A stretch of DNA of 49,413 nucleotides from Anaerolineae bacterium (GCA_034434975.1 DAOTYP010000005.1:1-49413), one strand, 5' to 3'. Numbered from the stretch's first letter, positions 2,038 to 49,413 are shown. Translations and numbers: made by a program. The notes: generated by a model from the sequence alone, not told the origin.

Positions 2038-2051
2038 ACGCACGAGGCGGT

Positions 2052-4524: not shown

Positions 4525-4541
4525 GGGAGCACGGAGCAACG

Positions 4542-6349: not shown

Positions 6350-6373
6350 GCTATCCAGGAGACGAGGAGAGAG

Positions 6374-8810: not shown

Positions 8811-8812
8811 CC

Positions 8813-9436: not shown

Positions 9437-9440
9437 GCCT

Positions 9441-9980
9441 GTGGGGCCGATTGAGCTGGTCTGGGGGGTGATCCTTCTCTTCTTCGCCATCGTGGGCCTG
9501 GTGAGAGGCTACGCCAAAGAGCTGGGCTCAACGCTGGTGATCCTGGTCGCCATCTTTGTTCTGACCCAGTTCGGCGAGGCGGCGCTGCAGCTCCTCCCGC
9601 CGCGCGTGGGGGAGATCGTCGGCCTTTCGGATTCCCCCCAAGAGCTGAACCTGCTGAAGTTGCTCATGATCGCGGGGGCCTTTGTCGTCATCCTCTACGC
9701 CGCGTACCAGGGTGAGACGTTGGCCTTTGAAGGGAGAAGCGCGTCGGGAGCGGAGGGCGCGGTTCTCAGCCTGATGCTGGGCCTGATCAACGGCTACCTG
9801 GTGGCCGGAACGCTTTGGTACTACCTGGACCTTTACCGGTATCCGATAGGGAGCCTGTTCCAGCCGCCGTTGAGCCCGTTGGCCCAAGCCATCATCCCTT
9901 ACCTGCCGCCCAACGTCCTCAGCCCCGGCGCGCTGACGGCGCTGATCGCCCTGATGATTCTGTTGAGGGTCCGGCGATGA
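9441..9980 (+). CDS. Integral membrane protein, CvpA-like
   Basis: GTG 9441 lies 4 nt after the previous stop. The N-terminus VILLFFAIVGLVRGYAKELGSTLVILVAIFV matches the CvpA-type TM1-RGFxxE block. There are 4-5 predicted TM helices. The stop overlaps the murC start (ATGA at 9977-9980). Confidence 0.55.
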   Translation: MGPIELVWGVILLFFAIVGLVRGYAKELGSTLVILVAIFVLTQFGEAALQLLPPRVGEIVGLSDSPQELNLLKLLMIAGAFVVILYAAYQGETLAFEGRSASGAEGAVLSLMLGLINGYLVAGTLWYYLDLYRYPIGSLFQPPLSPLAQAIIPYLPPNVLSPGALTALIALMILLRVRR

Positions 9981-11410: not shown

Positions 11411-12336
11411 GCACGTCCACCGCGACCGCTACCTTCATCGGTGAGGCGCAGCGGCTTTTCGGCGACAGGTTGCTTGCCGGCGAGCCCCTGGCCAGGCACA
11501 CTACCTTCCGCATCGGCGGGCCGGCCGATTGGTTTCTCCCCGTTGCGACGACGGCGGAACTGGCCCAGGCGGTGGGATTGGCGAGGGCGCATCGGGTGCC
11601 GTTTTTCATCCTGGGCGGCGGCAGCAACATCCTCGTGGCCGACGCGGGCATAGAAGGGCTGGTGATCGCGGTCCGCTGCCGCAGGACGGAGATACGACCA
11701 GGTGGGCTCCTTTACGCCGAAGCGGGGGCAGCGCTGGCAGGGGTGGCCCGCACGGCGATGCGGGTTGGCCTGGGCGGCTTGGAATGGGCGGTGAGCGTTC
11801 CCGGCACGGTGGGCGGCGCGGTGGTCGGCAACGCCGGGGCTCACGGCAGTTGTGTGGCCGATAGCCTGGAGACGGCAACCCTCCTCTCTCCCGCTGGCGA
11901 GGTGCAACGCCATCCGGTCGGCTGGTTTCGCTACGGCTATCGCCAAAGCCGCCTGAAGAACCAGCCCACTGAGGAGGCTTACATCGTGTTGGCCGCCGAG
12001 TTCCGCCTGCAGCCGGCGCCGACGGCGGAGTTAGAGGCGAGGGCAGAGGAATTCCTGACGCGGCGGCGCGCCACGCAGCCTACGGAGGCGAGCGTCGGCT
12101 CCGTCTTCAAGAACCCGACGGGCGACTATGCCGGAAGGCTCATAGAGGCCGCGGGGCTCAAAGGCCATCGGCTCGGCCAGGCCCAAATCTCGCCCGTCCA
12201 TGCTAACTTTATTGTGAACCTGGGCGGAGCCTCGGCGACGGAGGTGTGGCGCCTCATCCAACTGGCCCGGGAGACGGTAGCCTCCCGCTTCGGCATCCGT
12301 TTGGAGTTGGAGATCTTGCGTGTTGGGCGCTGGTAG
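11407..12336 (+). CDS. murB: UDP-N-acetylenolpyruvoylglucosamine reductase
   Basis: GTG 11407 overlaps the murC stop (GTGA). FAD-binding blocks are present: [12 protein letters not shown] and [12 protein letters not shown]. The C-terminal block GSVFKNP...AGRLIE is also present. Confidence 0.9.
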
Positions 12337-12370
12337 CGCCTACACTGTAAACTGTCTTGAGGAAACGGCC

Positions 12371-13537
12371 ATGAGCAGACGCTTGCGGGTGGGGGTGATC
12401 TTCGGTGGACGTTCCGGCGAGCATGAGGTCTCGCTGGCCTCCGCGCGCTCCGTCATGGCCGCGATGGACAAGACGAAGTATGAACCGATCCCCATCGGCA
12501 TCACCAAGGAGGGACGCTGGCTCCTCGCCGGCGAGCCGCTGCGGGTGTTGGAAGAGGCGGTGAAGCACGGCCCACATGCCTTGGCGGCCGAGGCCCGGGC
12601 GCTGCCCTCCCGTGAACTCATCCCGATCAGCGACGACGGCTCATCGGGGGCTATATCTCGCCCTTCACCTCTGGCCTCGCTGGACGTCGTCTTCCCCGTG
12701 TTGCACGGCCCGTACGGCGAAGACGGCACGGTGCAGGGCCTGCTGGAACTGGCCGACATCCCTTACGTCGGCGCAGGTGTTCTCGCCTCCGCCGTTGGCA
12801 TGGACAAGGCCGTGATGAAGGACATCTTCAAGGCTCACGACCTACCGATCACGCGCCACCAAGTCATCCTCCGCAAGACCTGGGAGGCCGACCCCGCGCG
12901 CGTGGTGCGCGAGGCGGAGAGCGCCTTCGGCTATCCCTGTTTCATCAAGCCCGCCTGCCTTGGCTCCAGCGTGGGGGTCACCAAGGCCCATGACCGAGCC
13001 GAACTAGAAGCAGGGCTGGCCGAGGCCGCGCGCTACGACCGCAAGCTCATCGTTGAAGAGGCCGTGCCTCACGCGCGAGAGATAGAATGCAGCGTCTTGG
13101 GCAACGACGATCCCCTCGCGTCTGTGCCGGGAGAGGTCATCCCCAGCCGCGAATTCTACGACTACGCGGCGAAGTACCTGGATAACGCCTCGCAATTGTT
13201 GATCCCGGCTCCGCTGCCGTCGGCCCTGACCGCACGGATCCGCGCGCTGGCCATCGCCGCGTTCAAGGCCATAGACTGCGCCGGCATGGCGCGGGTGGAT
13301 TTCCTGTTGGATGGCCTCAACGGCGAACTCTACCTGAACGAGGTCAACACCATCCCGGGCTTCACCGCGATCTCCATGTACCCTAAGTTATGGGAGGCCA
13401 GTGGGATCTCATACCCTGAACTGATTGACCGCCTGATCGCGCTGGCGCTGGAGCGCCACGCCGACCGCGCCCGCTCGGCAACCACCTATCTAGGCCGTGC
13501 CCTCGGCGCACAGGAGCAAGGAGAAACTTCATGCTAA
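12371..13537 (+). CDS. ddl: D-alanine--D-alanine ligase
   Basis: ATG 12371 gives [20 protein letters not shown]. Further blocks are [17 protein letters not shown] and the ATP-grasp C-terminus ARVDFLLDG...[13 protein letters not shown]. Confidence 0.9.
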
Positions 13538-14805
13538 CCTCCCGTGAGCGCGTGACGATGGCCCTTGATCATAAAGACCCTGACCGCGTGCCCTTAGATT
13601 TGGGCGGCACTTCGGTCTCAGGGATGCACGTCAGTTCCGTGTATTTACTGCGGCAGGCCCTGCATCTAGATCCACCCGGCACACCGGTCAAGGTGATAGA
13701 GCCGTTCCAGATGCTTGGCGAGATCAAACCGGATCTGATAGACGCGCTAGGCGTGGATGTGGTGCCGTTGCGGACGACGCAGACCCCCTTCGGCTTCCGG
13801 AACGAGGGCTGGAAACCATGGCACCTCTTTGACGGTACGCCGGTGCTGGTCCCGGCGGGCTTCAACACCGAGCCGGAACCGAACGGTGACATCTTGATGT
13901 ATCCGCAGGGAGATCGTTCAGCACCGCCGAGTGGCCGCATGCCGAAGGGCGGCTTCTACTTTGATGCCATCATCCGCCAGCCGCCCATAGATGAAGCGCG
14001 CCTGAACCCCGAGGACAACTTAGGGGAATTTGGCCCGATCAGCCCCGAAGATCTGGAATACCTGCGAAGCGAGGCCGAACGGCTCTACACCCAGACCGAC
14101 AAAGCCATCGTCATTCACGTAGGCGGTACGGCCTTTGGCGATATCGCACGGGTGCCCGGGACGGGACTCAAGTACCCCAAAGGGATTCGCGATGTGGAGG
14201 AGTGGTACATCAGCCTGACGAGTCGTCGCTCCTACATCTATCGCGTGTTTGAACGACAATGCGAGATCGCCCTTGCCAATTTGGAGAAGGTATGGCAGGC
14301 GGTGGGGAATCGGGTTTCCGTGGTGTACCTGACGGGCACAGACTTTGGGGCCCAAACCGGGCCTTTCGTCTCGCCCAAGACCTATCGCGACTTGTTCATG
14401 CCCTTTCATCGCCAACTCAACGATTGGATACATCGGCACACGGCCTGGAAATCATTCATCCACTCGTGCGGCTCGGTGATGGCGCTGATCCCACATTTCA
14501 TTGAAGCGGGGTTTGACATCTTGAATCCGGTGCAGGTCTCGGCTGCAGATATGGACCCAGGCCAGTTGAAAGCGCGTTTTGGTGACCGCATCACCTTCTG
14601 GGGCGGAGGAGTGGATACCCAACACACCCTACCTTTGGACACACCGGAGGAGGTGCGAAAGCAGGTGCGAGAACGTCTCTCTATCTTTGGGCGTGGCGGC
14701 GGTTACGTCTTTGCTGCGATCCACAACGTCCAGGCGTGCGTGCCTGTGGAGAACATACTGGCAATGTACGAGACGGTCCGAGAATACGGACGGTATCCGC
14801 TCTAG
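13531..14805 (+). CDS. Uroporphyrinogen-decarboxylase (URO-D) family protein (MtaA/CmuA-like fold), function unknown
   Basis: 424-aa ORF whose ATG overlaps the ddl stop (ATGCTAA, 7-nt overlap). The N-terminus SRERVTMALDHKDPDRVPLDLGG is typical of non-HemE members of the URO-D superfamily, as are the C-terminal blocks HSCGSV...AGFDILNPVQ and GGGYVFAAIHNVQ. Call made by eye. Confidence 0.7.
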   Translation: MLTSRERVTMALDHKDPDRVPLDLGGTSVSGMHVSSVYLLRQALHLDPPGTPVKVIEPFQMLGEIKPDLIDALGVDVVPLRTTQTPFGFRNEGWKPWHLFDGTPVLVPAGFNTEPEPNGDILMYPQGDRSAPPSGRMPKGGFYFDAIIRQPPIDEARLNPEDNLGEFGPISPEDLEYLRSEAERLYTQTDKAIVIHVGGTAFGDIARVPGTGLKYPKGIRDVEEWYISLTSRRSYIYRVFERQCEIALANLEKVWQAVGNRVSVVYLTGTDFGAQTGPFVSPKTYRDLFMPFHRQLNDWIHRHTAWKSFIHSCGSVMALIPHFIEAGFDILNPVQVSAADMDPGQLKARFGDRITFWGGGVDTQHTLPLDTPEEVRKQVRERLSIFGRGGGYVFAAIHNVQACVPVENILAMYETVREYGRYPL

Positions 14806-14850
14806 AGAAGGAACCGGCCGTTCAGGCCGGACAAAGGACGTAGGACATCT

Positions 14851-15675
14851 ATGCCGGCTTACCCTTCTACAATGACCCGCTATCGCGCGGCTTCTCGCCG
14901 ATCTTCCCGGCATGAGCCGGAGACGCGTCGCCAGCGACGCTATCGCGATGAGATACCTGTGCAACGTCCGTTGGCGCGACCACGGCCGGCTTTGCGCTTC
15001 TCCGCCAGCCGGGTCCTGGCCCTGATCCTGGCAGGGGTCATCGCCTTTGGCCTTGGCCAACTCCTGTCAAACGATCTTTTCTACGTCTATTCTGTCCAGG
15101 TTACAGGCAACCGCCTTCTGTCGGAAGGAGAAATCTTTGAGCAGAGCGGCATCGCAGGCCACAACATCTTTGGGGTGCGACCCCAACAGGTCAGCGCAGC
15201 CCTGATGGCCGATCCTTATGTCAAATCGGCGCGGGTGCAAGTAGGGCTGCCCAACCGCGTCCGCATTACCATCGTGGAGCGCGAGCCGCGCCTGGCCTGG
15301 GATGTCAACGGCACCGTCGTCTGGGCAGACGGCGAAGGGGTGATCCTGCCGCCTCGGGAAGGAAACGGCGAACTCGTGACCCTGGTGGACCCCGCCGGCG
15401 AAGCGGCGCTGGACGAAGGGCGCCTGCGCCCTGAGGTTGTCGCAAGTGCGTTGGAGATCCACCGGCTTCTGCCCGAACTCAAAACTTTCCGGTACGCCCG
15501 CAACCTAGGCTTACATTTTCAACTGCCTGGAGGCACGGTCTGCTACATGGGCGAAAAGGGCGACATGGCCACCAAAGTGGCCCTGCTGACCGCGCTGCGT
15601 CAGAACCTGGCCGCCCGACGAGTGCAGCCGCAGTTGATAGACCTACGATATGAAAGCAGCCCGTACTATCGGTGA
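14851..15675 (+). CDS. ftsQ: Cell division protein FtsQ/DivIB
   Basis: Basic cytoplasmic tail, a single TM (VLALILAGVIAFGLGQLL), then a POTRA-like block (VYSVQVTGNRLLSEGEIFEQSGI...NIF) and an FtsQ-type beta domain. It lies between ddl and ftsA. Confidence 0.8.
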   Translation: MPAYPSTMTRYRAASRRSSRHEPETRRQRRYRDEIPVQRPLARPRPALRFSASRVLALILAGVIAFGLGQLLSNDLFYVYSVQVTGNRLLSEGEIFEQSGIAGHNIFGVRPQQVSAALMADPYVKSARVQVGLPNRVRITIVEREPRLAWDVNGTVVWADGEGVILPPREGNGELVTLVDPAGEAALDEGRLRPEVVASALEIHRLLPELKTFRYARNLGLHFQLPGGTVCYMGEKGDMATKVALLTALRQNLAARRVQPQLIDLRYESSPYYR

Positions 15676-15732
15676 TCGGCGTGCCTTAGCGGCGCGCCCC
15701 GTGCGACGAAGGCGCAGGAGAGGTCGTCTCCG

Positions 15733-16992
15733 ATGACTCTGAGTCGGCAAGGCCGTCAAGCCGGTGAATTGATCGCCGCGATAGACATCGGCACCAGCAA
15801 GATCTGCGCGCTGGTAGCCGAACTGCGCGGCCCCAACGATCTGCGCATCATCGCCTCCGGCCAGGTGCCCTCGCGCGGGTTTAGCAAGGGCCTGGTGGAC
15901 AACATGCAACAGGCGACGGCCGCCATCGGCGAAGCCATTAGCGAGGTGGAACGCCGCGCCGCCGTGCAGATTGATCGCGCCTACGTGGGCATCGCCGGCA
16001 GCCACATTGAGACCCTCACCGCCCATGCGCCGCTCACCGTCGCGCGCCCCCACCGCGGCGTCACGCAGGACGACATAGATCGCGTCCTGGAGGGCGCGCG
16101 CGCCAACGCCGCCGTCGCTTCTAATCGCGTGGTGATCCACGTCCTCCCCCGCTCCTACACGCTGGACGGTCAGAAGAACATCCACGACCCCTTAGGCATG
16201 CGCGGGTACCGCTTGGAGGTAGATGCCATCGTGATCACCGGCGCCGAGGCCGCCGTCGGCAACCTGGTGGAATGCGTCCAGGCTCACGGCATCCAGATAG
16301 AGGACTTGGTGCTGGAGCCGCTGGCCTCCGGTGAAGCGGTGCTGACCCAAGCGGAGCGACAATTGGGTGTAGCGATCGCCGACATCGGCGCCGGCACCAC
16401 AGACCTGGCCATCTTCCTGGATGGGACGCTGTGGCACACGCGCATCCTAGACGTGGGCGGCGATCACCTCACCCGCGACCTCGCCGTCGCGCTCCACGCG
16501 CCCATCCCCACGGCGGAGGCGGTGAAGATCCGCTATGGGCATGTCTTGCCGACCCAGGTGTCGCCGGATGATCGCATCCCGGTCTCGGTTTTCGGCGAGA
16601 ACGGCGTGCAGCCGTTCTCCCGCCTATACGTGGCCGACGTGTTGCGGGCTCGGGCCGAAGAGATCTTGGAACTGGTGTTGAAGGAGGTGAAACGGTCAGG
16701 GTACGATGGTTTGTTACCGGCCGGGATCGTCCTGACCGGGGGCGTGGCCCAGATGCCGGGCCTGCGTCAACTCGGCCGCGAGATGTTACAACTGCCGGTG
16801 CGGGTCGGAGCGCCGAACGGGCTGGCCGGCCTGAGCGAGGAGATGCGCCAGCCGGCTTACGCGACCACGGTGGGCCTCCTCCTGTGGGCGCTGCGGTTTG
16901 GCCGGTCTCTGAGCGCTGAAGGCGCCCACGCGCCCAGGCCTCCGCTGCTGGACCGCATCGTGCAGTGGCTTCGCAATCTCTTACCGGAGTGA
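15733..16992 (+). CDS. ftsA: Cell division protein FtsA (actin-like ATPase)
   Basis: Actin-fold phosphate loops are present: AAIDIGTSKICALVAE and IADIGAGTTDLAIF. The block GIVLTGGVAQMPGL is present. The C-terminal amphipathic tail is LLDRIVQWLRNLL. Confidence 0.9.
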   Translation: MTLSRQGRQAGELIAAIDIGTSKICALVAELRGPNDLRIIASGQVPSRGFSKGLVDNMQQATAAIGEAISEVERRAAVQIDRAYVGIAGSHIETLTAHAPLTVARPHRGVTQDDIDRVLEGARANAAVASNRVVIHVLPRSYTLDGQKNIHDPLGMRGYRLEVDAIVITGAEAAVGNLVECVQAHGIQIEDLVLEPLASGEAVLTQAERQLGVAIADIGAGTTDLAIFLDGTLWHTRILDVGGDHLTRDLAVALHAPIPTAEAVKIRYGHVLPTQVSPDDRIPVSVFGENGVQPFSRLYVADVLRARAEEILELVLKEVKRSGYDGLLPAGIVLTGGVAQMPGLRQLGREMLQLPVRVGAPNGLAGLSEEMRQPAYATTVGLLLWALRFGRSLSAEGAHAPRPPLLDRIVQWLRNLLPE

Positions 16993-16998
16993 ACCGCC

Positions 16999-18303
16999 GT
17001 GACAGACCTGATGGAGCGCAAAGATAAGACCACCGTAGAACAGGCCATCAGCAAAGCCGCTGAAACCGGTGGCGTGCAGCGACCGTCGCCTGAGGCTGCA
17101 CCCCCGGCAGGAAACAGACGCTCAGGCGAGAGCGAGTCTCCAGGAAGGAGCGATGGTATGGGACGTGGCACCAGCGCGAAAGGGCAAACCCCTACGTATG
17201 TGGAGAACCTGGCCCAGATCAAGGTGATCGGCGTGGGGGGCGGAGGCCAGAACGCGGTCAACCGCATGATAGAAGAAGGGATCCAAGGCGTGGAGTTCGT
17301 CGCCGTCAACACCGACGCCCAGGCCTTGATGTTGTCTCAAGCCCCACGGCGGGTGCGCATCGGCGACAAACTGACCAAGGGCCTGGGTTCAGGCGGCGAT
17401 CCGGTCACGGGCGAGAAGGCCGCAGAGGAGTCCGCCGAGGAGATCCGGGAACTGATCAAAGGGGCCGACATGGTCTTCATCACATGCGGCCTGGGCGGGG
17501 GCACCGGCACGGGCGCGGCACCGGTCCTGGCGCGCATCGCGCGCGAGGCCGGCGCGCTGACCGTCGGCGTCGTGACCCGTCCCTTCACCTTTGAGGGCGC
17601 ACGCCGCCGCCAGGTAGCCGAGGAAGGCCTGAAAAAGTTGCGGGAGAACGTAGATACCCTGATCGTGATCCCCAACGACCGTCTCCTGCAAATCGTGGAC
17701 AAAAAGGCATCCATCCAAGCCGCCTTCCGCGTGGCCGACGACGTGTTGCGCCAGGGCATCCAGGGCATCTCCGAGATCATCACGGTCCCCGGACTCATCA
17801 ATGTAGATTTCAACGATGTGCGCAAGATCATGGCCGAGGGCGGCTCCGCCCTGATGTCCATCGGCCGCGGCCGTGGCGAGAACCGGGCCGAGGAGGCAGC
17901 CAACCAGGCCGTTACCAACTCCCTCCTGGACGTTACCATTGACGGCGCGCGCGGCATCCTGTTCAACGTAACAGGTGGCCCCGACCTCACCCTATTTGAG
18001 GTCAACCAGGCCGCCGAGATCATCAGCCGCCATGCACATCCCGAGGCCAACATCATCTTCGGTGCGGTCATCAATCAGGACATGTCCGACGAGATGCGCA
18101 TCACCGTCATCGCCACTGGCTTCCAGGGAGCCTCGGAGCAGAAGCAGCCGACGCTGTCCGTCGTCAAACCGGCCCAGCAGCCCACGCCTTCTGCCGGCAA
18201 GATCACCGATTTTCCGGTGCGCACCTTTGACCGGGATGATCTAGACGTCCCAGCCTTCCTCCGTCGGGCCGGACGCGGCGCCGGCCAGTCGCCACAACAG
18301 TAG
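16999..18303 (+). CDS. ftsZ: Cell division GTPase FtsZ
   Basis: [17 protein letters not shown] and the tubulin signature [11 protein letters not shown] are present. The C-terminal peptide is [11 protein letters not shown]. The longest ORF starts at GTG 16999. An internal ATG at 17158 has a much better SD (GGAAGGAG at 17143-17150) and would remove a 53-aa low-complexity N-tail. Confidence 0.93.
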
Positions 18304-23757: not shown

Positions 23758-26112
23758 ATGTTTCCACCGTCAGATGCGTGGGCCGTGTTCTTGCCGGACG
23801 GCCCCCCTGTTGACACGCCCCTATGGGAGGCAGAAACTCGGCCCTGGTCGTCGGCTTTGGCCGAGCATTACATCGCCTTGGCTAACTCCGCCGAAGGCCT
23901 GCTGCTAGACCCTTTCGCCCGGCACCCTGAGGGCGTGTTGGCAGCCGTGCGCGCCGGGCGTCGCGTCCTCGCCGTCAACCTGGACCCGACCCGTCTCCTG
24001 AGCCTACGCCTGAGCCTCTCCCCGCCGGCGCCGCGCCTGCTGGATGCCGCTTTGCGCGCGCTGGCCGATTCGCCGAAGGGAAACGAACCCCTCTCTCGCC
24101 ACCTATCCGATCTCTATCGCACCTCTTGCCCGCACTGCGGCAAGCCTGTAACCGCCGACTATTTCATCTGGGATGGCGATGCTGCCTTGCCGGTGGAGAA
24201 ACTGACCCGTTGTTCCGCCTGTAACGAGGAAAGGTTGAGCTCCGTCACCCCGGAAGACAGGCTCGTGCTGGAACGGTTGGAGCCTCGCGGCGCCCTCTAT
24301 TGGCAACTGATGAGCCGCCTGGTCGCCGGCCCGCAGGACGCCCTGGCCGAGCGCGCGGCGCAACTCCTCTCCCTCTATACACCCCGCAATCGCTACGCTT
24401 TGGCAGAACTGGCCTTGCGGGCGGAGACGCTCTTTGACGATGCCGACAGCCTGCGCGCCTTGCGAGGGCTACTCCTCTCCTGCCTGGAGCGTTGCCATTC
24501 CCTCTTCGCGCCCGGTGCTCCGGAACGGCCCACGCGGCCTACGCGGCTTCGCCCCCCGCGCCGCTTCATAGAGCGCAACGTCTGGAAAGCCCTGTTGGAC
24601 TCTTATCGCGTCCTACGCGCCCGCGCCGCCGCGAACGTCTCTTGGACCCTAAGCCTGCGCGCGTTGCTAGAAGCCCAAGCGCCCGTCGTCCTGGCCCAAC
24701 AGGCTACCGCGCGGTCCCTGGCCCGCGCCTTGCCTGCCGGCCTGGTGGACCTTGTGCTCACGGAGCCGCCTCGCGCGGACGCCGCCGAGTATGCTCTGGC
24801 CTACCTGTGGGCGGGTTGGCTCTTCGGGCGAGAGGCCACCACAGCCCTCCGCCCGTTGGCCATGCCCCGCCCTTCCTCCGATTGGGGATGGTATGCCGAC
24901 GCCCTGAAAGGGGTTTTGGGCTCGTTGCGAGAGGTATTGCATCCCAACGGCAAGGTCGTCTTGGCCTTCGGCGCGCAGGATGATGCCATGCTCGTCGCGA
25001 TCTTGCAGGCCGCAGCCCAGGCCGGCTTCCGCCTATATACCGCCGTCGCCCAACCCGATGCCTCGCCCACCTTGCATCGCCTCGTCTTGGAGATCGCGCC
25101 GCGTGCCCCCAAGCCGACCAGGCTTTCTCCTGCCGAACGTAGCGAGTTGGGACGTGAGGCCGCCCTGGCCGCGCTGAGGATCACCGGCCAGCCGATGCAA
25201 GGCAAAACCTTGGCCCGGGCGATCCTGTACGCCTGGGGCCGGCAAGGAGCCATCGCGGCGTCGCCGGATGGCCCTTCGCCTCCCGAGCACATCGCTGCAC
25301 AGCCGACAGAGCCGACGCGCTGGTGGGACGCGGCCGCCGCCGTTCTCGTTCCCGACGACAACCTCGCCCTCATCGGCCCGGCGCCTGAACAGGCCGACGA
25401 AAGGCGAGCGCGCCTGGAGGCCACATGGTGGCTCACGCAGCCCCACCAGGCCGATTCCCCCCTGGCGGACCGGGTAGAATCTTTCATCTATGATGCCTTG
25501 TGCCGGCAAGAACGATGGTCCGAAGCGGACCTGGCCTCAGCCCTTTACGCCACCTTCCCCGGCCTCTTGACGCCCCCCCGAGACCTGATCCGCGCCGTCC
25601 TCTCCTCGTACGCCCTGGAAGAATCGCCCGGCATTCGGCGGCTGCGTCCGGAAGATGCGCCCGCCGCTCGCGCCGCGGAGCGCAACGAGTTGCAGGCGCT
25701 CCTCCTGAGCCTTGGCCTGCGCCTGGGCTACGCGGTGCAAGATGTGCCAGCAACGCCCGGGCCCTGGCAGCCCTGCCGAGTCCTCTGGCTGGACGAGAAC
25801 GGCCCGGCGCGCGCCTTCGTCATACAAACTGCGGCGGCCCTCGGCCCTTTGCTGGCTCCCATAGATCCTTCCCTGGCTTTGATCCCTCACCATGTCCTCA
25901 TCCCCGGCGGGCGCGCGGCCCTCGTGGCGCACAAACTCCAACGGGTGCCGGGCTGGACAGGGATGATGGCCGCACGCGGCTGGCAGTTCGTGAAAAACCG
26001 CCATCTACGCAGGCTGGCAGAGATGGCCGAGTTGGATCGCGCCGGTTTCGCCGCGCGCCTGAGCCTTGACCCTATCGTGGAGCAGCCGGAAACGCAATTG
26101 TCGTTCTTCTGA
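23758..26112 (+). CDS. Large hypothetical protein: methyltransferase-like scaffold with degenerate SAM/catalytic motifs and a Cys4 Zn ribbon
   Basis: SD GGAGAAAGGA precedes ATG 23758. The motif-I-like block LLLDPFARHPEGVLAAVRAGRRVLAVNLDP (23908...) has RHPEG where GxGxG is expected. A Cys4 ribbon CPHC...CSAC lies at 24127-24222. The motif-IV-like block DLVLTEPPRADAAEYALAYLWAGWLF (TEPP at 24760-24771) has EPPR where (D/N/S)PP(Y/F) is expected. The order and spacing recall Zn-ribbon-containing N6/N4 DNA methylases (COG1743-like). The roughly 400-aa C-terminal half is unrecognisable. Confidence 0.6.
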   Translation: MFPPSDAWAVFLPDGPPVDTPLWEAETRPWSSALAEHYIALANSAEGLLLDPFARHPEGVLAAVRAGRRVLAVNLDPTRLLSLRLSLSPPAPRLLDAALRALADSPKGNEPLSRHLSDLYRTSCPHCGKPVTADYFIWDGDAALPVEKLTRCSACNEERLSSVTPEDRLVLERLEPRGALYWQLMSRLVAGPQDALAERAAQLLSLYTPRNRYALAELALRAETLFDDADSLRALRGLLLSCLERCHSLFAPGAPERPTRPTRLRPPRRFIERNVWKALLDSYRVLRARAAANVSWTLSLRALLEAQAPVVLAQQATARSLARALPAGLVDLVLTEPPRADAAEYALAYLWAGWLFGREATTALRPLAMPRPSSDWGWYADALKGVLGSLREVLHPNGKVVLAFGAQDDAMLVAILQAAAQAGFRLYTAVAQPDASPTLHRLVLEIAPRAPKPTRLSPAERSELGREAALAALRITGQPMQGKTLARAILYAWGRQGAIAASPDGPSPPEHIAAQPTEPTRWWDAAAAVLVPDDNLALIGPAPEQADERRARLEATWWLTQPHQADSPLADRVESFIYDALCRQERWSEADLASALYATFPGLLTPPRDLIRAVLSSYALEESPGIRRLRPEDAPAARAAERNELQALLLSLGLRLGYAVQDVPATPGPWQPCRVLWLDENGPARAFVIQTAAALGPLLAPIDPSLALIPHHVLIPGGRAALVAHKLQRVPGWTGMMAARGWQFVKNRHLRRLAEMAELDRAGFAARLSLDPIVEQPETQLSFF

Positions 26113-30699: not shown

Positions 30700-31749
30700 A
30701 TGGACGACCCTGGGCAATGGCCCCCCACAACCTTACGAATAGCGGTGCTGCACGGCGTCTTGGCCCCGGAACAGTGGGATGGCTCGGAAGCAGAGCGCAG
30801 AGAGATCAACAGGGGCGTATTCGAAGTAGCCGAGGCAATAGCCCACGCCTTGCGCAGCACCCCCAATGCCCAGGTCGTCGTGCATGGGATCAGCCGGTTG
30901 CGCGGCCTCTCCGCCTGGCTGCGCAGGGAGCAGATCAACGTCGTCTTCAACGTTTGCGAGTTCCTTGAGGGAAAGGGAAGCGAGGTTCACAAGATCCCCG
31001 CCCTCCTAGAACGGTTGGGGATTCCCTACACAGGCAACCGCGCCCCTGTCGTGCGCCTGAGCTTCAACCGCGTCGCCCTCAAGCGCAGACTTTTGCGCTA
31101 CGGCATTCCAACCCCCTCCTACGAGATCTTACAGGCCGGAGGCCCCCTTAACGGCCGCTTGTCGTTTCCCCTCATCGTGAAAGTAGCCAACGAGCACGCG
31201 TCCTTGGGCTTGGACGAACGCTCGGTCGTCTGGGATGAAGCCAGCCTGCAAGCACAGGCTCGGCGCGTGGCCCAGGAGCACGGCTGGCCGGTCTTGGTGG
31301 AGTCGTACATTGAAGGGATGGAGGTTACCGCCTCGCTGGTGGAAGACGACGACGGGCTCAAGATCCTCGGCCTACGCCAGTTTGACTTCTCGGAGGTTCC
31401 TCCTGGCCTTCCTCACATCATCACCTATCGCGCGAAATGGGAGACCGCCAGCGAGGACTACAAGCGCATCCGGCGCGGCAAGGCTCGCTTGTGCCCTGAG
31501 GTGGAGAGGGAGGTACGCCAATTGGCCCTCCGAACCTTTCAAGCGCTGGGCTGCCGAGATTACGGCCGTGTAGATGTGCGTGTAGATGCTGCGGGCCGCA
31601 TCTTCGTCATTGACGTAAACCCTGATTGCAGCCTGGAGATAGACTCCAACTGGGTGCTCACCGCTTTGGAGGAAGGCTACACCTACGAAACGGCCCTTCG
31701 CCATCTCCTCTTCCTGGCCGTCCGGCGCGGAGGGAAACCCTGCGGCTGA
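30700..31749 (+). CDS. ATP-grasp ligase, D-Ala-D-Ala-ligase-like family
   Basis: 349-aa ORF with SD GGAGG. The ATP-grasp layout is present: LGIPYTGN, FPLIVKVANEHASLGL, VLVESYIEGMEV and GRVDVRVDAAGRIFVIDVNPDCSL. It diverges from the dcw-encoded Ddl, with DVN where Ddl has E-x-N, so substrate is not assignable. Confidence 0.7.
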   Translation: MDDPGQWPPTTLRIAVLHGVLAPEQWDGSEAERREINRGVFEVAEAIAHALRSTPNAQVVVHGISRLRGLSAWLRREQINVVFNVCEFLEGKGSEVHKIPALLERLGIPYTGNRAPVVRLSFNRVALKRRLLRYGIPTPSYEILQAGGPLNGRLSFPLIVKVANEHASLGLDERSVVWDEASLQAQARRVAQEHGWPVLVESYIEGMEVTASLVEDDDGLKILGLRQFDFSEVPPGLPHIITYRAKWETASEDYKRIRRGKARLCPEVEREVRQLALRTFQALGCRDYGRVDVRVDAAGRIFVIDVNPDCSLEIDSNWVLTALEEGYTYETALRHLLFLAVRRGGKPCG

Positions 31750-31904
31750 AACCACACGAAGACCGTCGGAGGTAACGGAAAGCCAGGACGCGCGAAACCT
31801 TTTGCCGACCTCTGCGTCCCTAATATTGGGGAAGGCTACAGAGTCCTCCTACATAAAGTCGTATCGCTACAGGTCGGGGGTCAAAAGAAGGAGACCACAA
31901 CAAT

Positions 31905-31933
31905 TTGCCGATTGGGCGAAGATCGGCTATACT
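31905..31933 (+). promoter_or_regulatory. sigma70-type promoter of the LysM-YkuD gene
   Basis: -35 TTGCCG (31905-31910), 17-nt spacer, -10 TATACT (31928-31933). Confidence 0.55.
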
Positions 31934-31979
31934 TTTTAGGGTAAACGTCGCGTGCTGGCCGCGACAGGTTGGAGGAGAC

Positions 31980-32801
31980 ATGAAGCACAAGGCGCACGTG
32001 GCGTTTGTTTTGCTTTTGATGATCGGCCAGCTCCTGCTGACCGGCGTCGTTTCGGCCGATACCGAGGCCGCCCAGGTCGTGCATGTGGTGCGGCGTGGGG
32101 AAACGCTCGCCAGCATCGCGGCCCGCTACGGCGTCTCGGTGGCAAACGTTGTCCAGGCCAACTCGTTGCGCAACGCCAACTTCATCTGGGTTGGCCAAAG
32201 GCTCATCATCCCTACAAGCGCCGGCGCGCCAAGCCAGGGAAGCAGTGGGGTCTACTACGTGCGCTGGGGCGATACCCTTGCCAAGATCGCCGCTCGGTAC
32301 GGCATCTCCGTTCAGGCCATCATGGCGGCCAACGGGATCCGCAACCCCAACCTGATCTACGTAGGCCAGCGCCTGGCCATCCCAGGCGGCAACACACCTG
32401 CCCCTCAACCCACCCCCGTTCCCCAGCCTAATCCCAACCCTGACACAGGCGGCAAGTGGATAGATATAGACCTATCGGAGCAGCGGCTGCGGGCCTACGA
32501 GGGGAGCAAACTCGTGCTGAGCGTACTGGTCAGCACAGGGATCGCCCGCTACCCCACCCCGACGGGACGTTTTGCCATCCAGACGAAAGTCCGCTCGCAG
32601 ACGATGTCGGGCCCCGGCTACTACCTGCCGGGCGTGCAGTGGGTGATGTATTTCTACCGAGGTTACGCGATCCACGGCACGTATTGGCACAACAATTTCG
32701 GGCGGCCTATGAGCCATGGCTGCATCAACCTGACCAACGCTGACGCCCAGTTCATGTACAATTGGGCCCCCATCGGCACACCGGTCGTGATCCACCGGTG
32801 A
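31980..32801 (+). CDS. Secreted L,D-transpeptidase with two LysM domains (YkuD family)
   Basis: ATG 31980 follows GGAGGAG, and a signal peptide is present. There are two LysM repeats: [20 protein letters not shown]...VGQRLIIP and [20 protein letters not shown]...VGQRLAIP. The YkuD catalytic block YAIHGT...SHGCINL is present. Confidence 0.85.
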
Positions 32802-44748: not shown

Positions 44749-47310
44749 TCACACCACCCTGGGCACGCGCGCCAATATCTCCGACACCACCTCGTAGTTG
44801 ATCGTCCCCAGCCGCTCGGCGACCTCTTCCACCGTGATGCGATCGTCGCCCTGCGCGCCGATGAGCACCACCTCATCCCCTTGGCGCACGCCGGGGATGT
44901 GGGTCACGTTGATCATCGTTTGATCCATGCAGACCCGGCCCACGATCTTTGCCCGTCGTCCGCGCACGAGCACCTCGCCCCAGTGCGCGGGCGCGCGGCG
45001 GAAGCCGTCGGCGTACCCTACGGGGATCACCGCGATCCGTTCCTCGCCCTGGGTGCGGTAGGTGTTACCGTAACTGACGTAACTGCCGGGCGGAAGCGTC
45101 TTCACCTGGGCGATCTGCGTTTTCCAACTCAGCGCGGGGCGAAAGCCCGGCGGCAATGGCGTCTCCGCGGAGGGCGCGAGGCCGTAGAGGGCGATCCCCA
45201 GACGCACCAGGTTGAAGCGGCTCTCCGGCACGGTGAGGAGCGCAGCCGAGTTGGCTGCGTGCACCAGCGGCGGGCGCAAACCTTCCGCCTCCAGCGCATC
45301 CAACACGGCGCGAAAGACGGCCAGTTGCCGGTAGGTGTAGCCTTTGTCGGCGGCATCGGCCACGGAAAAGTGAGTGAAGATGCCCTCCACCTCCACGCCC
45401 GGCAGGTCGCGCAGCGCACGCATGAAGGGCAACACTTCATCCGGCAACAGGCCAAGCCGCCCCATGCCGGTATCCACCTTCACGTGGAGTCGCGCGGTCT
45501 GATGAAGTTCCACCGCGGCGCGGCTGAAGGCGCGGGCGCTATCCAGGTCAAAAACGGTCGCGGTCACGCGGTGAAGGAGCGCCTCGCGCGCGTGCCAAGC
45601 CGGGGTATAGCCCAAGATGAGGATCGGCGCGTCCAGGCCGGCGCGCCGCAGGGCGACCGCCTCGGCCAGACACGCCACGCCCAGTATCCGCGCGCCGTTG
45701 TTCAGGGCCGTGCGGCCCACGATGACCGCGCCGTGGCCGTAACCGTCGGCCTTCAGCACCGCCAGGATGCCCACCCCCGGCCCCACGATCTCTTGGGCCC
45801 GCCGGATGTTGTGCGCAATGGCGTTCAGGTCAATCTCCAACCAGGTAGGGCGGTCGGGGCGCGCCGCGCTCAAGCGGGCAAGGACGGTGCTCCCCCCCTG
45901 GCGCACCAGCAGATCGGACGCGCGGGCCGCCGCCTCCGGCGCGAGGAGACGGCTGACCAGACGCTCCAGCCGCGCCTCCCTTCCGCCTTTGACCAAAAGG
46001 ACGGCATCTGGGCCGAGCCGCTCCGAGAGGTAACGCGCCGCCTCCTCTATGCTATAGGTCTCAAAGACGGCCGACGGTGGCAGGCCTGCGGCCCGCGCCG
46101 CCTGCGCGCTCCCCCTGGCCCGTTCGCCTACCGTAACCAACGTCTCTACCACACCGACCGCCGCCTCTCCTACCTTGCGGTGGCCTTCGGCCTCGTAGTG
46201 GCCCAAATCCTCCATGTCGCCTAGCACGGCCAGGCGCCGATGCCCTTTAAAACAAGCCAACGCCGACAACGCGGCCAGGGCGGTCGCGGGCGTGGCGCTC
46301 ACGGTGTCATCCAGGATGAGGCTCCCTTGCAAGCCAGGCAGCGGGTTCAGGCGACCGGGCAAGGGAGGCAAACCGGACAACGCCGCGCTCGCCTCGGCCG
46401 GCGATACGCCGCTGATGAGCCCGACGCCCAACGCGGCCAGCGCGGGATAGACCGCATGGGGGCCGAGAAAACGCAGACAGATATCCGCCTTCGCCTGGTC
46501 GTCGCCGCGATGCACGAAGGTGAACGAGGTGCCGGCAGGGGTACAACGAACATCCACCGCGCGCAGGTCAGCCTGAGGCGAGCAGCCAAAGGTCAGGACG
46601 CGCGCACGGGTGTGTGCGCGCAAGGCTAGAACGCGCGGGTCATCGGCGTTCAGCAAGGCGAAACCGTCGGGCGGCAAGGCCTCTACCAGGCGCCCCTTCT
46701 CGCGCGCGACGGTAGCCAAGTCGCCAAAGAAGGCCAGGTGCGCCTCATGAACGGAAGTTACAACGCCGACGACGGGCCGGGTGAGCGCGGCCAGGTCGCG
46801 TATCTCATCCAGGCTGGTGGCCGCCAGTTCCAGGACGGCGATCTCATGTTCAGGCCCTAACCCGCCCAGCGCGATGGGAAGGCCATAGCGACCGCTGTAA
46901 CTGGCTGGGCTCTTGAAGACGCGAAAGCGAGAGGCGAGGACTGCCGCGATCGCCTCCTTCGTCACCGTCTTGCCGCTGGAGCCGGTGACGGCGACCACGC
47001 GCGGGCTATAACGCCTCAGGATGTGCGCGGCCCAATCTAGAAGCGCGCGGCGCACGTCATCCACGACGACGCACGTGACGCCGAACGGGCTCAGATCAAG
47101 GGGATGTTGGCAAAGGACGCCCGCCGCGCCGCCCCGCGCCACATCCAAGATGTAATCGTGGCCATCGCCCGTCTCCGTCTTGACCGCCAGGAACAACTGG
47201 CCTTGGCGCAGAAGGCGCGAGTCAAAGCAGAAATCGGTGAAACGATCGGCGAAGGCAGGGCCGTGCAGTCGCCCGCCCGTCGCCACAAGAAGGTCAGACA
47301 AGAGGATCAT
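44749..47310 (-). CDS. Bifunctional MurF-like Mur ligase / alanine racemase fusion
   Basis: 853-aa ORF. The N-terminal Mur-ligase domain (about 45930-47310) carries the P-loop VAVTGSSGKTVTKE. The C-terminal alanine racemase domain (44749 to about 45855) carries the PLP-lysine motif AVLKADGYGHG and the VSYGNTY block. The start overlaps the upstream stop (4-nt overlap). Confidence 0.85.
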   Translation of the reverse strand: MILLSDLLVATGGRLHGPAFADRFTDFCFDSRLLRQGQLFLAVKTETGDGHDYILDVARGGAAGVLCQHPLDLSPFGVTCVVVDDVRRALLDWAAHILRRYSPRVVAVTGSSGKTVTKEAIAAVLASRFRVFKSPASYSGRYGLPIALGGLGPEHEIAVLELAATSLDEIRDLAALTRPVVGVVTSVHEAHLAFFGDLATVAREKGRLVEALPPDGFALLNADDPRVLALRAHTRARVLTFGCSPQADLRAVDVRCTPAGTSFTFVHRGDDQAKADICLRFLGPHAVYPALAALGVGLISGVSPAEASAALSGLPPLPGRLNPLPGLQGSLILDDTVSATPATALAALSALACFKGHRRLAVLGDMEDLGHYEAEGHRKVGEAAVGVVETLVTVGERARGSAQAARAAGLPPSAVFETYSIEEAARYLSERLGPDAVLLVKGGREARLERLVSRLLAPEAAARASDLLVRQGGSTVLARLSAARPDRPTWLEIDLNAIAHNIRRAQEIVGPGVGILAVLKADGYGHGAVIVGRTALNNGARILGVACLAEAVALRRAGLDAPILILGYTPAWHAREALLHRVTATVFDLDSARAFSRAAVELHQTARLHVKVDTGMGRLGLLPDEVLPFMRALRDLPGVEVEGIFTHFSVADAADKGYTYRQLAVFRAVLDALEAEGLRPPLVHAANSAALLTVPESRFNLVRLGIALYGLAPSAETPLPPGFRPALSWKTQIAQVKTLPPGSYVSYGNTYRTQGEERIAVIPVGYADGFRRAPAHWGEVLVRGRRAKIVGRVCMDQTMINVTHIPGVRQGDEVVLIGAQGDDRITVEEVAERLGTINYEVVSEILARVPRVV

Positions 47311-48566
47311 AGAGAGGGCCGAGACTCAACAGGATGGGGCGCCAGCAAGGCCTCCCAATCCACCTCGGGGATGGGGGGCGGCTGCGGCATCTCCGGCTTA
47401 GGGATCATCAGGGTCTCAAAGGTCTGAGCAGTGGCTTCCAGGGGGCTGATGTCCACCTCCGGCATGGGCAAAGGCTCTGGAAAGAGGCCTTCCCCGACGA
47501 TAGCCGCCGTGACGGGCATCTTCTCTATCTCCGGCATCTCGGCTCGCGCAGGCATGGTCGCATGAGACGGCATCGCCCCTCGGGCCGGAGAGGCGGCTTC
47601 TCGTCGGGCCTTGCGCGCCACCTCACGCGGCTCACGGCTGGCCACGCGCAGCGCCCAGGCGAAATCTTTGGCGGTAGCGAAGCGCTGCCCGGGTTGCAAC
47701 GCGAGGGCGACCTCCAGCACCTGGTCCAACTCAGGCCAGACATCGGGGTTAAAGCGGCTCGCGGGGATGAGCCGGCCCGCGTCGCGGGCGGGGCCACGCT
47801 GGGTCAATAGAAGGTACAGGAGCGCGCCCAAGGCGTAAACATCACTTCGCGCGTCGGCCTCCGCGCCGGCTACGACTTCCGGCGGCGTGAAGAAGGTGCG
47901 CACCTTGGGCACTGCCAACCCTACCGCCCGCATGATCTGGCTCAGACCGACGCCGCGCACCATGACCTGGCCCCCTTGGCTGACGAAGATTTGGTCGCTG
48001 CCGAGGAAGCCGTGGATCAACCCTTGCTCATGGGCGTAGGCCAACGCATCCGCCGCTTTCAACGCGACCTGAAGCGCATCCCGCAGTTTCCAAGGCCGCC
48101 CCTCGCGCAGCCGCTCCGTCAGCGGGGTCAACCCCTCCGCCAGACGCACCATCAGGTAGGAGAGGCCCCCTTCCTCGCCGGCTTCCACCAGAGAGGCTAA
48201 GTTGGGGTGGTTCAAGCGGCGTATCAACCCCAACAGTTGGCGATAGGTCGCGCCAGCCTCTTTCTGACCCTGCCTTGGCAAGACGCGCGCTGCGATCGGC
48301 GCTCCCTTCGGCCCCGGCTCGCGAGCCTCTATCCAGCCGCCCGGCCCGGTGCGGGCGCGCTCGCCCAGGGCCCGATACAGCGCAAGGGCCTCCCGCACGA
48401 GGGCGCGCCGCACCTCACGCGGCGTGCGGCCCGCCTGCGCGCCAGAGGCAACCCGCGCCAACCAGCGCGCCACCTCGGGCGGCAAGAGCGAGCCCTCCGC
48501 CGTCGCGGTCATTGCCAAGACGGCGCGCGCCAGGCGCGCCTGAAGGGACGATCTTTCCTCGCTCAT
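47307..48566 (-). CDS. Hanks-type Ser/Thr kinase homologue lacking catalytic residues (pseudokinase) with Pro/Glu-rich C-terminal tail
   Basis: The kinase C-lobe is recognisable (ALAYAHEQGLIH..., TPPEVVAGAEADARSDVYALGALLYLLLT). Catalytic motifs are replaced. HRDxKxxN becomes HGFLGSDQ (47991-48014). DFG becomes GVG (47946-47954). The VAIK Lys becomes Arg (IAARVL). There is no GxGxxG loop. Confidence 0.7.
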   Translation of the reverse strand: MSEERSSLQARLARAVLAMTATAEGSLLPPEVARWLARVASGAQAGRTPREVRRALVREALALYRALGERARTGPGGWIEAREPGPKGAPIAARVLPRQGQKEAGATYRQLLGLIRRLNHPNLASLVEAGEEGGLSYLMVRLAEGLTPLTERLREGRPWKLRDALQVALKAADALAYAHEQGLIHGFLGSDQIFVSQGGQVMVRGVGLSQIMRAVGLAVPKVRTFFTPPEVVAGAEADARSDVYALGALLYLLLTQRGPARDAGRLIPASRFNPDVWPELDQVLEVALALQPGQRFATAKDFAWALRVASREPREVARKARREAASPARGAMPSHATMPARAEMPEIEKMPVTAAIVGEGLFPEPLPMPEVDISPLEATAQTFETLMIPKPEMPQPPPIPEVDWEALLAPHPVESRPSL

Positions 48567-48573
48567 GACAGGC

Positions 48574-49413
48574 TCATAGGCTGAGACCGATGATCTCTTC
48601 CGCCTGGGCCACAGCCCCTTGCATATCGGCGATGAGGCCCTTCATGTCGCTCTCGGTCCAATCCAACTGTTGGATGGCGACCTCGTCCAGGGTATAGCGC
48701 AGCCCGTCCACGCCGATGCCGATGCCCGCCATCAGGGCGGCGGCGTTGGCGATGTGAACAGCCGAGGCAAAGCGCGGATCAATCTGCGCCTTCGCCGGCA
48801 AATGGTGGCAAGCGACGGCCTCTATCACCCGATCGGGCAGGTTCCAAGACCTCACGATCACCGCGCCTACCTCGGCGTGATCGTAGCCGGTGATCTGGCG
48901 CTCTACCTCCGTCCAGGCGCGTTTGTCTGGGTCTTCATAGGCTTTCTCTCCCCACTCCGCCTGTTGCTGCAGAATCAAATCCAGGGCCAGTTTCCCTACA
49001 TCGTGGAGCAAGCCTGCCACGTAGACCTCCGAGCGAGGAGTGATGAGGCGACGCTGCGCGATCCTTTCGCTCCCTACCGCCACGGCCACGGAATGTCGCC
49101 ATAGCATCGCCCGCTCCAACCTGTAGGCAGGAACGGGCCGGGAGAGGATCTTGCTGGCGGAGGCAGCGAAAATGACCTCCTGCACGGTCTCATAGCCCAG
49201 GTAGCCGATGGCCTCATCCAAAGAGGCGATGCGGCGGGGAAGGCCATAGTAGGCGGAGTTCACCATCTTGAGAAACAGGCCCGTCAGGCTCTGATCCAGC
49301 GCCAGGACGCTCGTGAGGTCGGACCGCCGCGAGCGCGGGTCCTGGATGATGGCCAAGGCGCGGACCAACACCTGGGGCATCGGCGGAAGTTGGCGCAAGA
49401 CGGTCGGGAGTAG
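48574..49413 (-). CDS. HDOD-domain protein (5' end may lie beyond the window)
   Basis: LPPMPQVLVRALAIIQDP...LTSVLALDQSLTGLFLKMVNSAYYGL...IASLDEAIGYLG and AGLLHDVGKLAL are typical HDOD blocks. The frame stays open to the window edge upstream of the TTG at 49398. The stop lies 7 nt before the pseudokinase ATG. Confidence 0.8.
   Translation of the reverse strand, partial: LLPTVLRQLPPMPQVLVRALAIIQDPRSRRSDLTSVLALDQSLTGLFLKMVNSAYYGLPRRIASLDEAIGYLGYETVQEVIFAASASKILSRPVPAYRLERAMLWRHSVAVAVGSERIAQRRLITPRSEVYVAGLLHDVGKLALDLILQQQAEWGEKAYEDPDKRAWTEVERQITGYDHAEVGAVIVRSWNLPDRVIEAVACHHLPAKAQIDPRFASAVHIANAAALMAGIGIGVDGLRYTLDEVAIQQLDWTESDMKGLIADMQGAVAQAEEIIGLSL

Follow-up and report, generated by a model that had tools for sequence, protein, structure and literature searches.

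Recent surveys published in 2025 have sorted bacterial Hanks-type kinases into 35 canonical families and seven pseudokinase families, namely ActPs1-3, GLW, CP1, DYD and DLHK (PMC12599244; bioRxiv 10.1101/2025.01.12.632604). Hardly any bacterial pseudokinase has an established partner or function; the 2025 survey described these seven families as 'with unknown functions', and only MviN is understood mechanistically. The MviN/MurJ protein (Rv3910; ActPs3) of the actinobacterium Mycobacterium tuberculosis joins its pseudokinase domain to the MurJ membrane flippase; about 40 residues of the activation loop are deleted from this domain, which functions via phosphorylation by PknB and recruitment of FhaA (PMC12599244). 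Here, we analysed a stretch of 49,413 nucleotides from an Anaerolineae bacterium (GCA_034434975.1 DAOTYP010000005.1:1-49413), hereafter the window, that carries a gene for a free-standing, soluble pseudokinase directly upstream of a gene for a fusion of MurF and alanine racemase (MurF-Alr). We lean towards the view that this pseudokinase serves the MurF-Alr enzyme as a regulatory or scaffold subunit without catalytic activity.

The pseudokinase matched the Pfam Pkinase profile (PF00069) over residues 92-261 (E=2.3e-15, 57.1 bits vs a cutoff of 31.7), and its nearest solved structures by sequence were the kinase domains of M. tuberculosis PknB and PknA (E ~5e-16). The kinase-like domain is preceded by an N-terminal extension, for which AlphaFold2 (AF2) predicted helices at residues 8-20, 30-41 and 49-72 with a predicted local distance difference test (pLDDT) score of 63-84, and followed by a long tail (P 19%, E 14%, A 14%, M 6%) (Table 1). 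No transmembrane (TM) segment was found in the protein (best Kyte-Doolittle 19-mer mean of 1.37), and Pfam and NCBIfam scans of its 419 residues returned neither PASTA nor any further domain. The gene is free-standing in all orthologues examined. These results bear out the architecture read from the sequence alone in the original prediction, that is, a free-standing kinase homologue with a preserved C-lobe, flanked by an N-terminal helical region and a Pro/Glu/Met-rich tail, without TM segment or PASTA domain.

Catalytic positions were scored using pairwise HMMER alignments to PknB and PknA, a 65-sequence alignment, and an alignment of the family with four active kinases, and all three agreed on the placement of the motifs. 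Arg94 stands at the beta3 (VAIK) Lys site, Leu111 at the alphaC Glu position, and F187 at the HRD Asp position of a catalytic loop in which the Lys and the Asn are likewise replaced, while the DFG motif reads GVG. Query positions 94 and 205 fall in columns of the 65-sequence alignment that hold at least 90% Lys and Asp, respectively; therefore, the catalytic residues are substituted and not displaced. An alternative placement of the catalytic residues was ruled out, as the K, D and D columns fell on R94, F187 and G205 in all three alignments, and neither the Pkinase profile nor the pairwise alignments placed a catalytic Lys, Asp or DFG anywhere in the protein. The C-lobe retains an APE-like end of the activation segment (TPPE) and the alphaF helix RSDVYALGALLY (residues 240-251).

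The losses of the catalytic-loop Asp, Lys and Asn, of DFG and of the beta3 Lys had all been called correctly beforehand, and the loss of the alphaC Glu can be added to that list. The glycine-rich loop had been reported as absent: no GxGxxG is present, but the region is degenerate rather than simply missing, as a remnant, TGPGGW (residues 73-78), aligns there. The bacterial STK atlas defines a pseudokinase operationally by the substitution of at least one of VAIK-Lys, HRD-Asp and DFG-Asp (bioRxiv 10.1101/2025.01.12.632604); all three are substituted in the window protein. We infer from these motifs that the protein is catalytically dead. Public databases annotate it as 'serine/threonine protein kinase' and its partner as 'alanine racemase', and the former label is probably wrong.

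Structure prediction also supported a confident PknB-like kinase fold, in agreement with what had been anticipated. The AF2 model had a mean pLDDT of 82.8 and a predicted TM-score (pTM) of 0.71, with pLDDT exceeding 90 for residues ~110-310, and its best Foldseek matches were PknB, PknA and Stk1 (TM-scores of 0.66-0.70 normalised to the target). In this model, just one strand (79-82) precedes beta3 and helix 49-72 occupies the place of beta1, so that the glycine-rich hairpin is lost and TGPGGW is what is left of it. The tail begins in the last helix (299-325) and reaches its lowest confidence at residues 335-360.

Selection acting on the gene was estimated by pairwise Nei-Gojobori ratios of nonsynonymous to synonymous substitution rates (dN/dS, or omega) among six close sequences, i.e. 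the window and five orthologues. These orthologues, which share 62-80% identity, were found together with remoter relatives in Anaerolineae metagenome assemblies. dN/dS was 0.12-0.20 for the whole pseudokinase, 0.08-0.31 for the N-terminal extension, 0.05-0.16 for the N-lobe, 0.08-0.18 for the C-lobe and 0.11-0.27 for the tail, hence below 0.32 in each region. The corresponding values were 0.07-0.13 for MurF-Alr, the downstream neighbour, and 0.04-0.11 for the HDOD gene, the upstream neighbour. The pseudokinase gene is thus under clear, somewhat relaxed purifying selection, and the earlier claim of an intact open reading frame (ORF) under coding constraint stands for every region of the protein.

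These values bear directly on the idea that the gene is a decaying kinase or a PD-T4-6-type anti-phage defence kinase. All catalytic motifs are gone, PADLOC PD-T4-6 models match at up to 108 bits, and two members of the family, L007 and L172, look frameshifted in their assemblies. However, 11 near-identical cluster members have an intact ORF, as do orthologues with as little as 31% identity, the gene in L172 differs from a full-length one by a single frame change, and breaks in three other loci (L173-L175) fall in a repetitive linker. Decay was rejected on the basis of the dN/dS of the whole gene. A PD-T4-6 kinase was rejected as well, since the PADLOC matches reflect generic kinase-domain similarity to active kinases, the catalytic residues are absent, and the neighbours are cell-wall genes with no defence island. 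We consider both possibilities extremely improbable.

To collect members of the family, we searched 1.84 billion representative proteins with a profile, scanned GTDB species genomes and added loci fetched later. The family comprises at least 26 sequences, and 26 were compared. The family belongs to Chloroflexota, mostly Anaerolineae, with relatives in metagenome-assembled genomes (MAGs) of Anaerolineae and Chloroflexia. The family was monophyletic in a tree rooted with active kinases and divided into clade C on one side and clades A and B on the other. HG-x-[L/F] instead of HRD (H185-G186 and L188 in the window protein) and a non-acidic residue at the alphaC Glu site are common to all members; none of the 26 has an alphaC Glu or a GxGxxG loop, and all carry the tail motifs F-P-x-P-[LA]-x-[MI]-P-x-[VIL]-[DEN] and P-P-x-[MI]-P-x-[VI]-[DN]-W. 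Clade A, which includes the window protein, and clade B possess the N-terminal extension, have no zinc ribbon, and read R/GVG and Q/GVG, respectively, at the beta3 Lys and DFG positions. Clade C members have no N-terminal extension, carry a zinc ribbon (CxxCG...CxxCG) after the kinase domain, and mostly read K/D[F/L]G.

By this distribution, the ancestor of the family had already lost HRD, the alphaC Glu and the G-loop, and the beta3 Lys and the DFG Asp disappeared later, along the stem leading to clades A and B and sporadically in clade C, where L007 (Q/GLG) and L009 (R/DLG) represent further independent losses. Therefore, the original prediction that all motifs were lost together describes the window protein, in which every one is absent, but not the family, across which the loss was stepwise.

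The partly preserved sites of clade C raise the question of residual or non-canonical chemistry, such as ligand binding or a SelO/SidJ-like atypical reaction, and clade C proteins might even phosphorylate MurF-Alr. Besides the beta3 Lys and D[F/L]G, four clade C members keep the catalytic-loop Asn, and L008 is the sole member to keep the HRD Asp (HGD). Furthermore, in some pseudokinases a beta3 Lys-to-Arg substitution does not preclude ATP binding (PMC12599244). Against this stand the absence of the alphaC Glu and GxGxxG from the entire family and, in clades A and B, the loss of the beta3 Lys, the HRD Asp, the loop Lys and Asn, and the DFG Asp. Moreover, close clade A orthologues differ freely from one another at the former catalytic-loop positions (F/S, S/G, D/E, Q/H), which speaks against a new use of this loop as an active site. 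Residual ligand binding or chemistry is thus conceivable for clade C and unlikely for the window protein; as an explanation for the family as a whole, we regard it as quite improbable.

The partner of the pseudokinase was identified with TIGR01143 (309 bits) and TIGR00492 (367 bits), and its P-loop (GSSGKT), pyridoxal phosphate-binding Lys (VLKADGYGHG) and catalytic Tyr region (VSYG) are intact. The ATG of the fusion overlaps the stop codon of the pseudokinase by 4 bp (ATGA). Among the 16 loci retrieved via the pseudokinase or its tail, to which the synteny count is limited, the fusion lies immediately downstream in 14 (clade A, 6/6; clade B, 3/3; clade C, 5/7). The 4-bp overlap recurs in nine loci, the window included, and the junction measures 8-9 nt in four clade A loci, which also share the order RpiB-HDOD-pseudokinase-MurF-Alr. 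The other neighbours differ completely between clades (RpiB-HDOD, CutA1, or DUF2231/LiaI-LiaF-like/DAGK), and nothing but the pseudokinase-fusion pair is conserved as a unit, although the pseudokinases share only 31-35% identity. This linkage, which formed no part of the original prediction, is the strongest lead to the role of the protein. No promoter or terminator signal above shuffle expectation was detected between the HDOD, pseudokinase and MurF-Alr genes.

The fusion is not the only MurF of the window. A complete dcw cluster carries, in order, genes for an FtsI-type penicillin-binding protein (PBP), a canonical MurF, MraY, MurD, FtsW, MurG, a 222-aa ORF, CvpA, MurC, MurB, the D-Ala-D-Ala ligase Ddl, a URO-D-like protein, FtsQ, FtsA and FtsZ. 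The dcw MurF is canonical (TIGR01143, 420 bits vs a cutoff of 289), is the sole ligase between the PBP and MraY, with no MurE found there, and shares 41% identity with the MurF half of the fusion. Therefore, the pseudokinase accompanies a second, paralogous MurF-Alr and not the housekeeping MurF.

The pseudokinase gene is translationally coupled with that of this paralogous MurF-Alr and probably co-transcribed with it. Taken as a regulatory or scaffold subunit, the pseudokinase would be made in near-stoichiometric amounts with the enzyme and bound to it via its intact kinase C-lobe, its two Pro-rich tail motifs, or both. It would thereby tune the D-alanine branch of peptidoglycan-precursor synthesis. 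Alanine racemases are homodimers; hence, the two motif copies could engage the racemase dimer. The analyses show the kinase fold, the missing catalytic residues, purifying selection, the monophyly of the family and the conservation of the gene pair with its stop-start overlap; we infer the physical binding to MurF-Alr, the direction of any regulatory effect and the role of the tail, and the scaffold or allosteric role put forward in the original prediction is of this second kind.

Conversely, a metagenome search using an alignment of the fusion, which recovered 80 fusion loci (47-87% identity), revealed a broader distribution of the enzyme. Using a local hidden Markov model (HMM) search, we found the pseudokinase directly upstream in only 12 of the 50 fusion loci with at least 1300 nt upstream (~24%), and nowhere else in any fusion locus. 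The enzyme thus works without the pseudokinase in most lineages. In addition, two members of the family lack a downstream fusion, one on a 3.8-kb contig (P0008) where an MBL-fold gene follows and the other in a Chloroflexia MAG (L007), and gene adjacency and overlap point to co-expression, not to binding. All of these observations weigh against a dedicated subunit. An obligate partnership in both directions was rejected because only 12/50 fusions have the pseudokinase; in the other loci, the upstream gene varies.

The same observations lend some credit to the possibility that the two genes are merely co-regulated from a shared promoter and that the real target lies elsewhere, for instance a kinase engaged by the pseudokinase as a decoy dimer partner, an HDOD partner, or the divisome as a scaffold: 76% of the related fusions have no pseudokinase, an HDOD gene is a conserved neighbour 7 nt upstream in clade A, and the dcw cluster lies in the same window. 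Yet clades B and C have no HDOD neighbour, all three clades retain the MurF-Alr junction, mostly as a 4-bp overlap, and no other gene is conserved with the pseudokinase. We consider co-regulation alone unlikely.

Furthermore, when 54 fusions were placed in a neighbour-joining tree, those from loci with the pseudokinase formed coherent groups that mirror clades A, B and C, a pattern expected from co-inheritance as a pair. Therefore, the pseudokinase is an accessory of a more widespread enzyme and, where present, is almost always attached to the fusion. In three fusion loci without pseudokinase (L152, L163 and L165), the upstream slot is occupied by a canonical-type D-Ala-D-Ala ligase gene on the same strand (~2600-3960, plus), which supports a role of the fusion in the D-alanine branch; the ligase gene is divergent in three other loci without pseudokinase (L093, L154 and L166).

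Residue patterns were also seen within the fusion. Asn749 (45064-45066), two residues past the catalytic Tyr (VSYGNTY), is present in 19/19 pseudokinase-linked fusions and in only 9% of the fusions without pseudokinase, which mostly have Cys or Ala instead. Residues 353-354 (46249-46254; C/L-F) follow a similar pattern. Both could mark co-adaptation or simply phylogeny. Substitution of the Tyr in the MurF 'DDxYNAxP' motif was rejected as a pseudokinase-linked signature, Phe being common in unlinked fusions too.

No family-specific feature of the pseudokinase is more conserved than its tail motifs. Both share the form P-x-P-[M/I]-P-x-[V/I]-D, followed by Trp in the second copy. In an alignment of eight members from clades A and C, F362, P363, M368 and P369 of motif 1 and P394, P400, D403 and W404 of motif 2 are invariant. 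Motif 1 recurs in clade B, where motif 2 keeps the Trp and has Asn in place of D403 in two members. Motif 2 was modelled with a pLDDT of 77-85, unusually high for a tail.

A search of 5.8 billion proteins with a profile of the tail returned only 'hypothetical proteins' of 38-123 aa. The two hits that we inspected are artefacts of this family, and all ten sequences retrieved resemble clade C tails. Clade C genes are often broken in assemblies, with frameshifts in L007 (6960-7250) and L172 (4740-6261). In L172, a single frame change interrupts a gene of otherwise full length, and the name of its contig hints at a long-read assembly. The contigs of L173-L175 (1-439), independent of each other, begin at one and the same point of a repetitive linker, Ala/Pro-rich (APSTAK-like), that joins the zinc ribbon to the tail; in both cases, the gene ends 4 bp into MurF-Alr. 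The spurious 'tail-only' database proteins are thus explained by frameshifts in clade C genes or contigs broken in the linker. The tail motifs were found neither in FtsZ or FtsA nor in other ORFs of the window or of ~170 fetched loci. We therefore rejected the tail as a portable docking module, and it appears to be an element specific to this family.

The tail might alternatively serve a phospho-switch similar to that of MviN, whereby a Hanks/PASTA kinase phosphorylates it and FHA or another reader then controls peptidoglycan-precursor synthesis. PknB and PknA are the closest relatives in sequence and structure, MviN operates in this way (PMC12599244), and the tail is long and partly disordered. 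However, the eight-member alignment contains no conserved Ser or Thr in the tail, its invariant residues being F, P, M, D and W, and neither the 49-kb window nor the flanks of any orthologous locus contained a gene for an FHA protein, a PP2C phosphatase or an active kinase. Such a switch seems improbable.

A more far-reaching version of the subunit model sees in the family a series from kinase to pseudokinase. An ancestral Hanks kinase acting over the second MurF-Alr would have become an obligate allosteric or scaffolding subunit that docks through its two tail motifs on the dimeric racemase-ligase and gates an alternative precursor supply. In filamentous Chloroflexota, these peptidoglycan precursors would be D-amino-acid-terminated and supplied separately from the housekeeping route through dcw MurF/Ddl. 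If true, a soluble bacterial pseudokinase would for the first time have been shown to serve a cytoplasmic cell-wall enzyme as a dedicated subunit; we rate this version as rather unlikely.

Table 1. Coordinates of the features discussed, in the window unless another locus is named.
Feature	Position	Strand	Basis or remark
Pseudokinase gene	47307..48566	minus	ATG start, 419 aa + stop; clade A
N-terminal helical extension, residues 1-72	48351..48566	minus	AF2 secondary structure and alignments
Kinase-like domain, residues ~73-310	47637..48350	minus	Pfam, PDB alignment, AF2, Foldseek
Arg94 at beta3 (VAIK) Lys site, IAAR94 vs VAxK	48285..48287	minus	three alignments
Degenerate catalytic loop HGFLGSDQ (185-192) vs HRDxKPxN	47991..48014	minus	alignments
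GVG (205-207) vs DFG	47946..47954	minus	alignments
TPPE (227-230), APE-like end of activation segment	47877..47888	minus	alignments
Pro/Glu/Ala/Met-rich C-terminal tail, residues 311-419	47310..47636	minus	AF2 and composition
Four in-register hexapeptides MPSHAT/MPARAE/MPEIEK/MPVTAA (332-355)	47502..47573	minus	also in P0003-P0006
Tail motif 1, FPEPLPMPEVD (362-372)	47451..47483	minus	family-specific
Tail motif 2, MPQPPPIPEVDWEALLAP (393-410)	47337..47390	minus	family-specific
MurF-alanine racemase fusion, 853 aa	44749..47310	minus	Mur_ligase_M/C + Ala_racemase_N/C (Pfam); junction; synteny
HDOD/HD-domain gene	48574..49413	minus	Pfam HDOD, 173 bits; 5' end cut by window edge; orthologues 285 aa
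dcw cluster	346-18303	plus	complete
Canonical MurF of the dcw cluster	2052-3467		
URO-D-like gene of the dcw cluster	13531-14805		
784-aa ORF	23758-26112	plus	no Pfam/NCBIfam match
Divergent Ddl-like ATP-grasp gene, then LysM-LysM-YkuD L,D-transpeptidase	30700-32801	plus	
YfhO-like/Wzx fusion, 1354 aa	40649-44713	plus	
ORF antisense to MurF-Alr, 594 aa	44440-46224	plus	Arg/Gly/Ala-rich
HEAT-like neighbour	L007 7502-9157; L008 5437-6957; L009 6358-7857; L173 3238-4803	minus	weak HEAT-repeat match

Several other features of the window and of related loci were recorded. The dcw cluster is followed by genes for NrdR and a class II-like ribonucleotide reductase. The second, divergent Ddl-like gene scored ~105-108 bits (cutoffs of ~245) and shares 22% identity with the dcw Ddl; together with the L,D-transpeptidase and MurF-Alr, it hints at an alternative route for the peptidoglycan stem peptide. 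A gene combining a YfhO-like membrane glycosyltransferase region with a Wzx/MOP-type flippase is convergent with MurF-Alr across a 35-nt gap and is also found beside the closest orthologue. The 784-aa ORF lies where the window is richest in GC (68%). The long ORFs that run antisense to real genes, such as the one opposite MurF-Alr, are products of the 64-68% GC content and not genes. In clade C, a conserved convergent neighbour codes for a 500-550-aa HEAT-like protein and still adjoins the pseudokinase gene in L007, where the fusion is absent.

We compared the window protein with the descriptions of the seven published pseudokinase families, and membership in any of them was rejected. ActPs1, from Actinobacteria, has a C-terminal PQQ-2 domain and, in most members, a G-helix deletion, whereas the C-lobe of the window protein aligns with PknB up to residue ~310 and the protein has no PQQ domain. 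ActPs3, likewise actinobacterial, pairs its activation-loop deletion with a C-terminal TM segment or a fusion to MurJ, none of which is seen in the window protein. ActPs2 shares the beta3 Lys-to-Arg substitution with clade A, clades B and C having Q or K; it is otherwise set apart by an HRD Asp-to-Asn substitution, a DFG deletion, a 32-aa beta3-alphaC insertion, a ~250-aa activation-loop insertion and a C-terminal TM segment, while HGF and GVG align gap-free in the window protein, which has no insertions and no TM segment. GLW proteins have GLW for HRD, poly-Leu/Trp for the beta3 Lys and a C-terminal TM segment, as opposed to HGF, IAAR and no TM segment. CP1 proteins have a linked COG3899 ATPase, often with FhlA or PAS, in contrast to a single-domain protein of 419 aa, and DYD and DLHK keep a canonical HRD and/or DFG, neither of which is kept here. 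A pseudokinase family from Chloroflexi appears in neither survey, nor do MurF or a racemase; Chloroflexota are named once, as a branch of the canonical CCM1 family (PMC12599244; bioRxiv 10.1101/2025.01.12.632604).

PknB and PknA have C-lobe signatures in common with the window protein: the APE-like motif, the RSDVYALG helix and the ALxxDPxxRF region. Unlike it, they are catalytically active and carry a TM helix and, outside the cell, PASTA repeats; the window protein scored 93.6 bits against the PASTA kinase equivalog NF033483 (Stk1/PknB), for which the cutoff is 450. The partner enzyme has the same domain order, MurF ligase then racemase, as the bifunctional MurF/alanine racemase NF008897 (PRK11930). 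However, the Chloroflexota fusion reached 453 bits vs a cutoff of 804 and coexists with a canonical dcw MurF, and the literature searched describes no NF008897-family member paired with a pseudokinase. As that literature also yielded no relevant report of a Chloroflexi pseudokinase or of a kinase-linked MurF-racemase fusion, a Chloroflexota pseudokinase family with a specific enzyme partner is apparently so far undescribed.

By analogy, the closest functional counterpart appears to be the pseudokinase domain of MviN. Like the window protein, MviN has degraded VAIK-Lys, HRD-Asp and DFG-Asp and is non-catalytic, and like the window gene it has a genetic tie to peptidoglycan-precursor supply, in which its role is regulatory and not essential (PMC12599244). 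In contrast, the window protein is soluble and carries a Pro-rich tail, its activation segment is near full-length (residues 205-230, only ~5 residues shorter than that of PknB), and its gene belongs to Chloroflexota and is coupled to a cytoplasmic MurF-Alr. Pseudokinases in bacteria, and a link between a pseudokinase and peptidoglycan, were thus already known, while a free-standing family with a testable partner had not yet been described. This family offers such a concrete partner, MurF-Alr, translationally coupled across three clades, along with candidate docking elements in its tail motifs and active sites that range, within the family, from partly to fully degraded, and it flags a second MurF/Alr route in Chloroflexota cell-wall synthesis. 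The function of a bacterial pseudokinase thus becomes approachable by co-expression, binding and enzyme assays.

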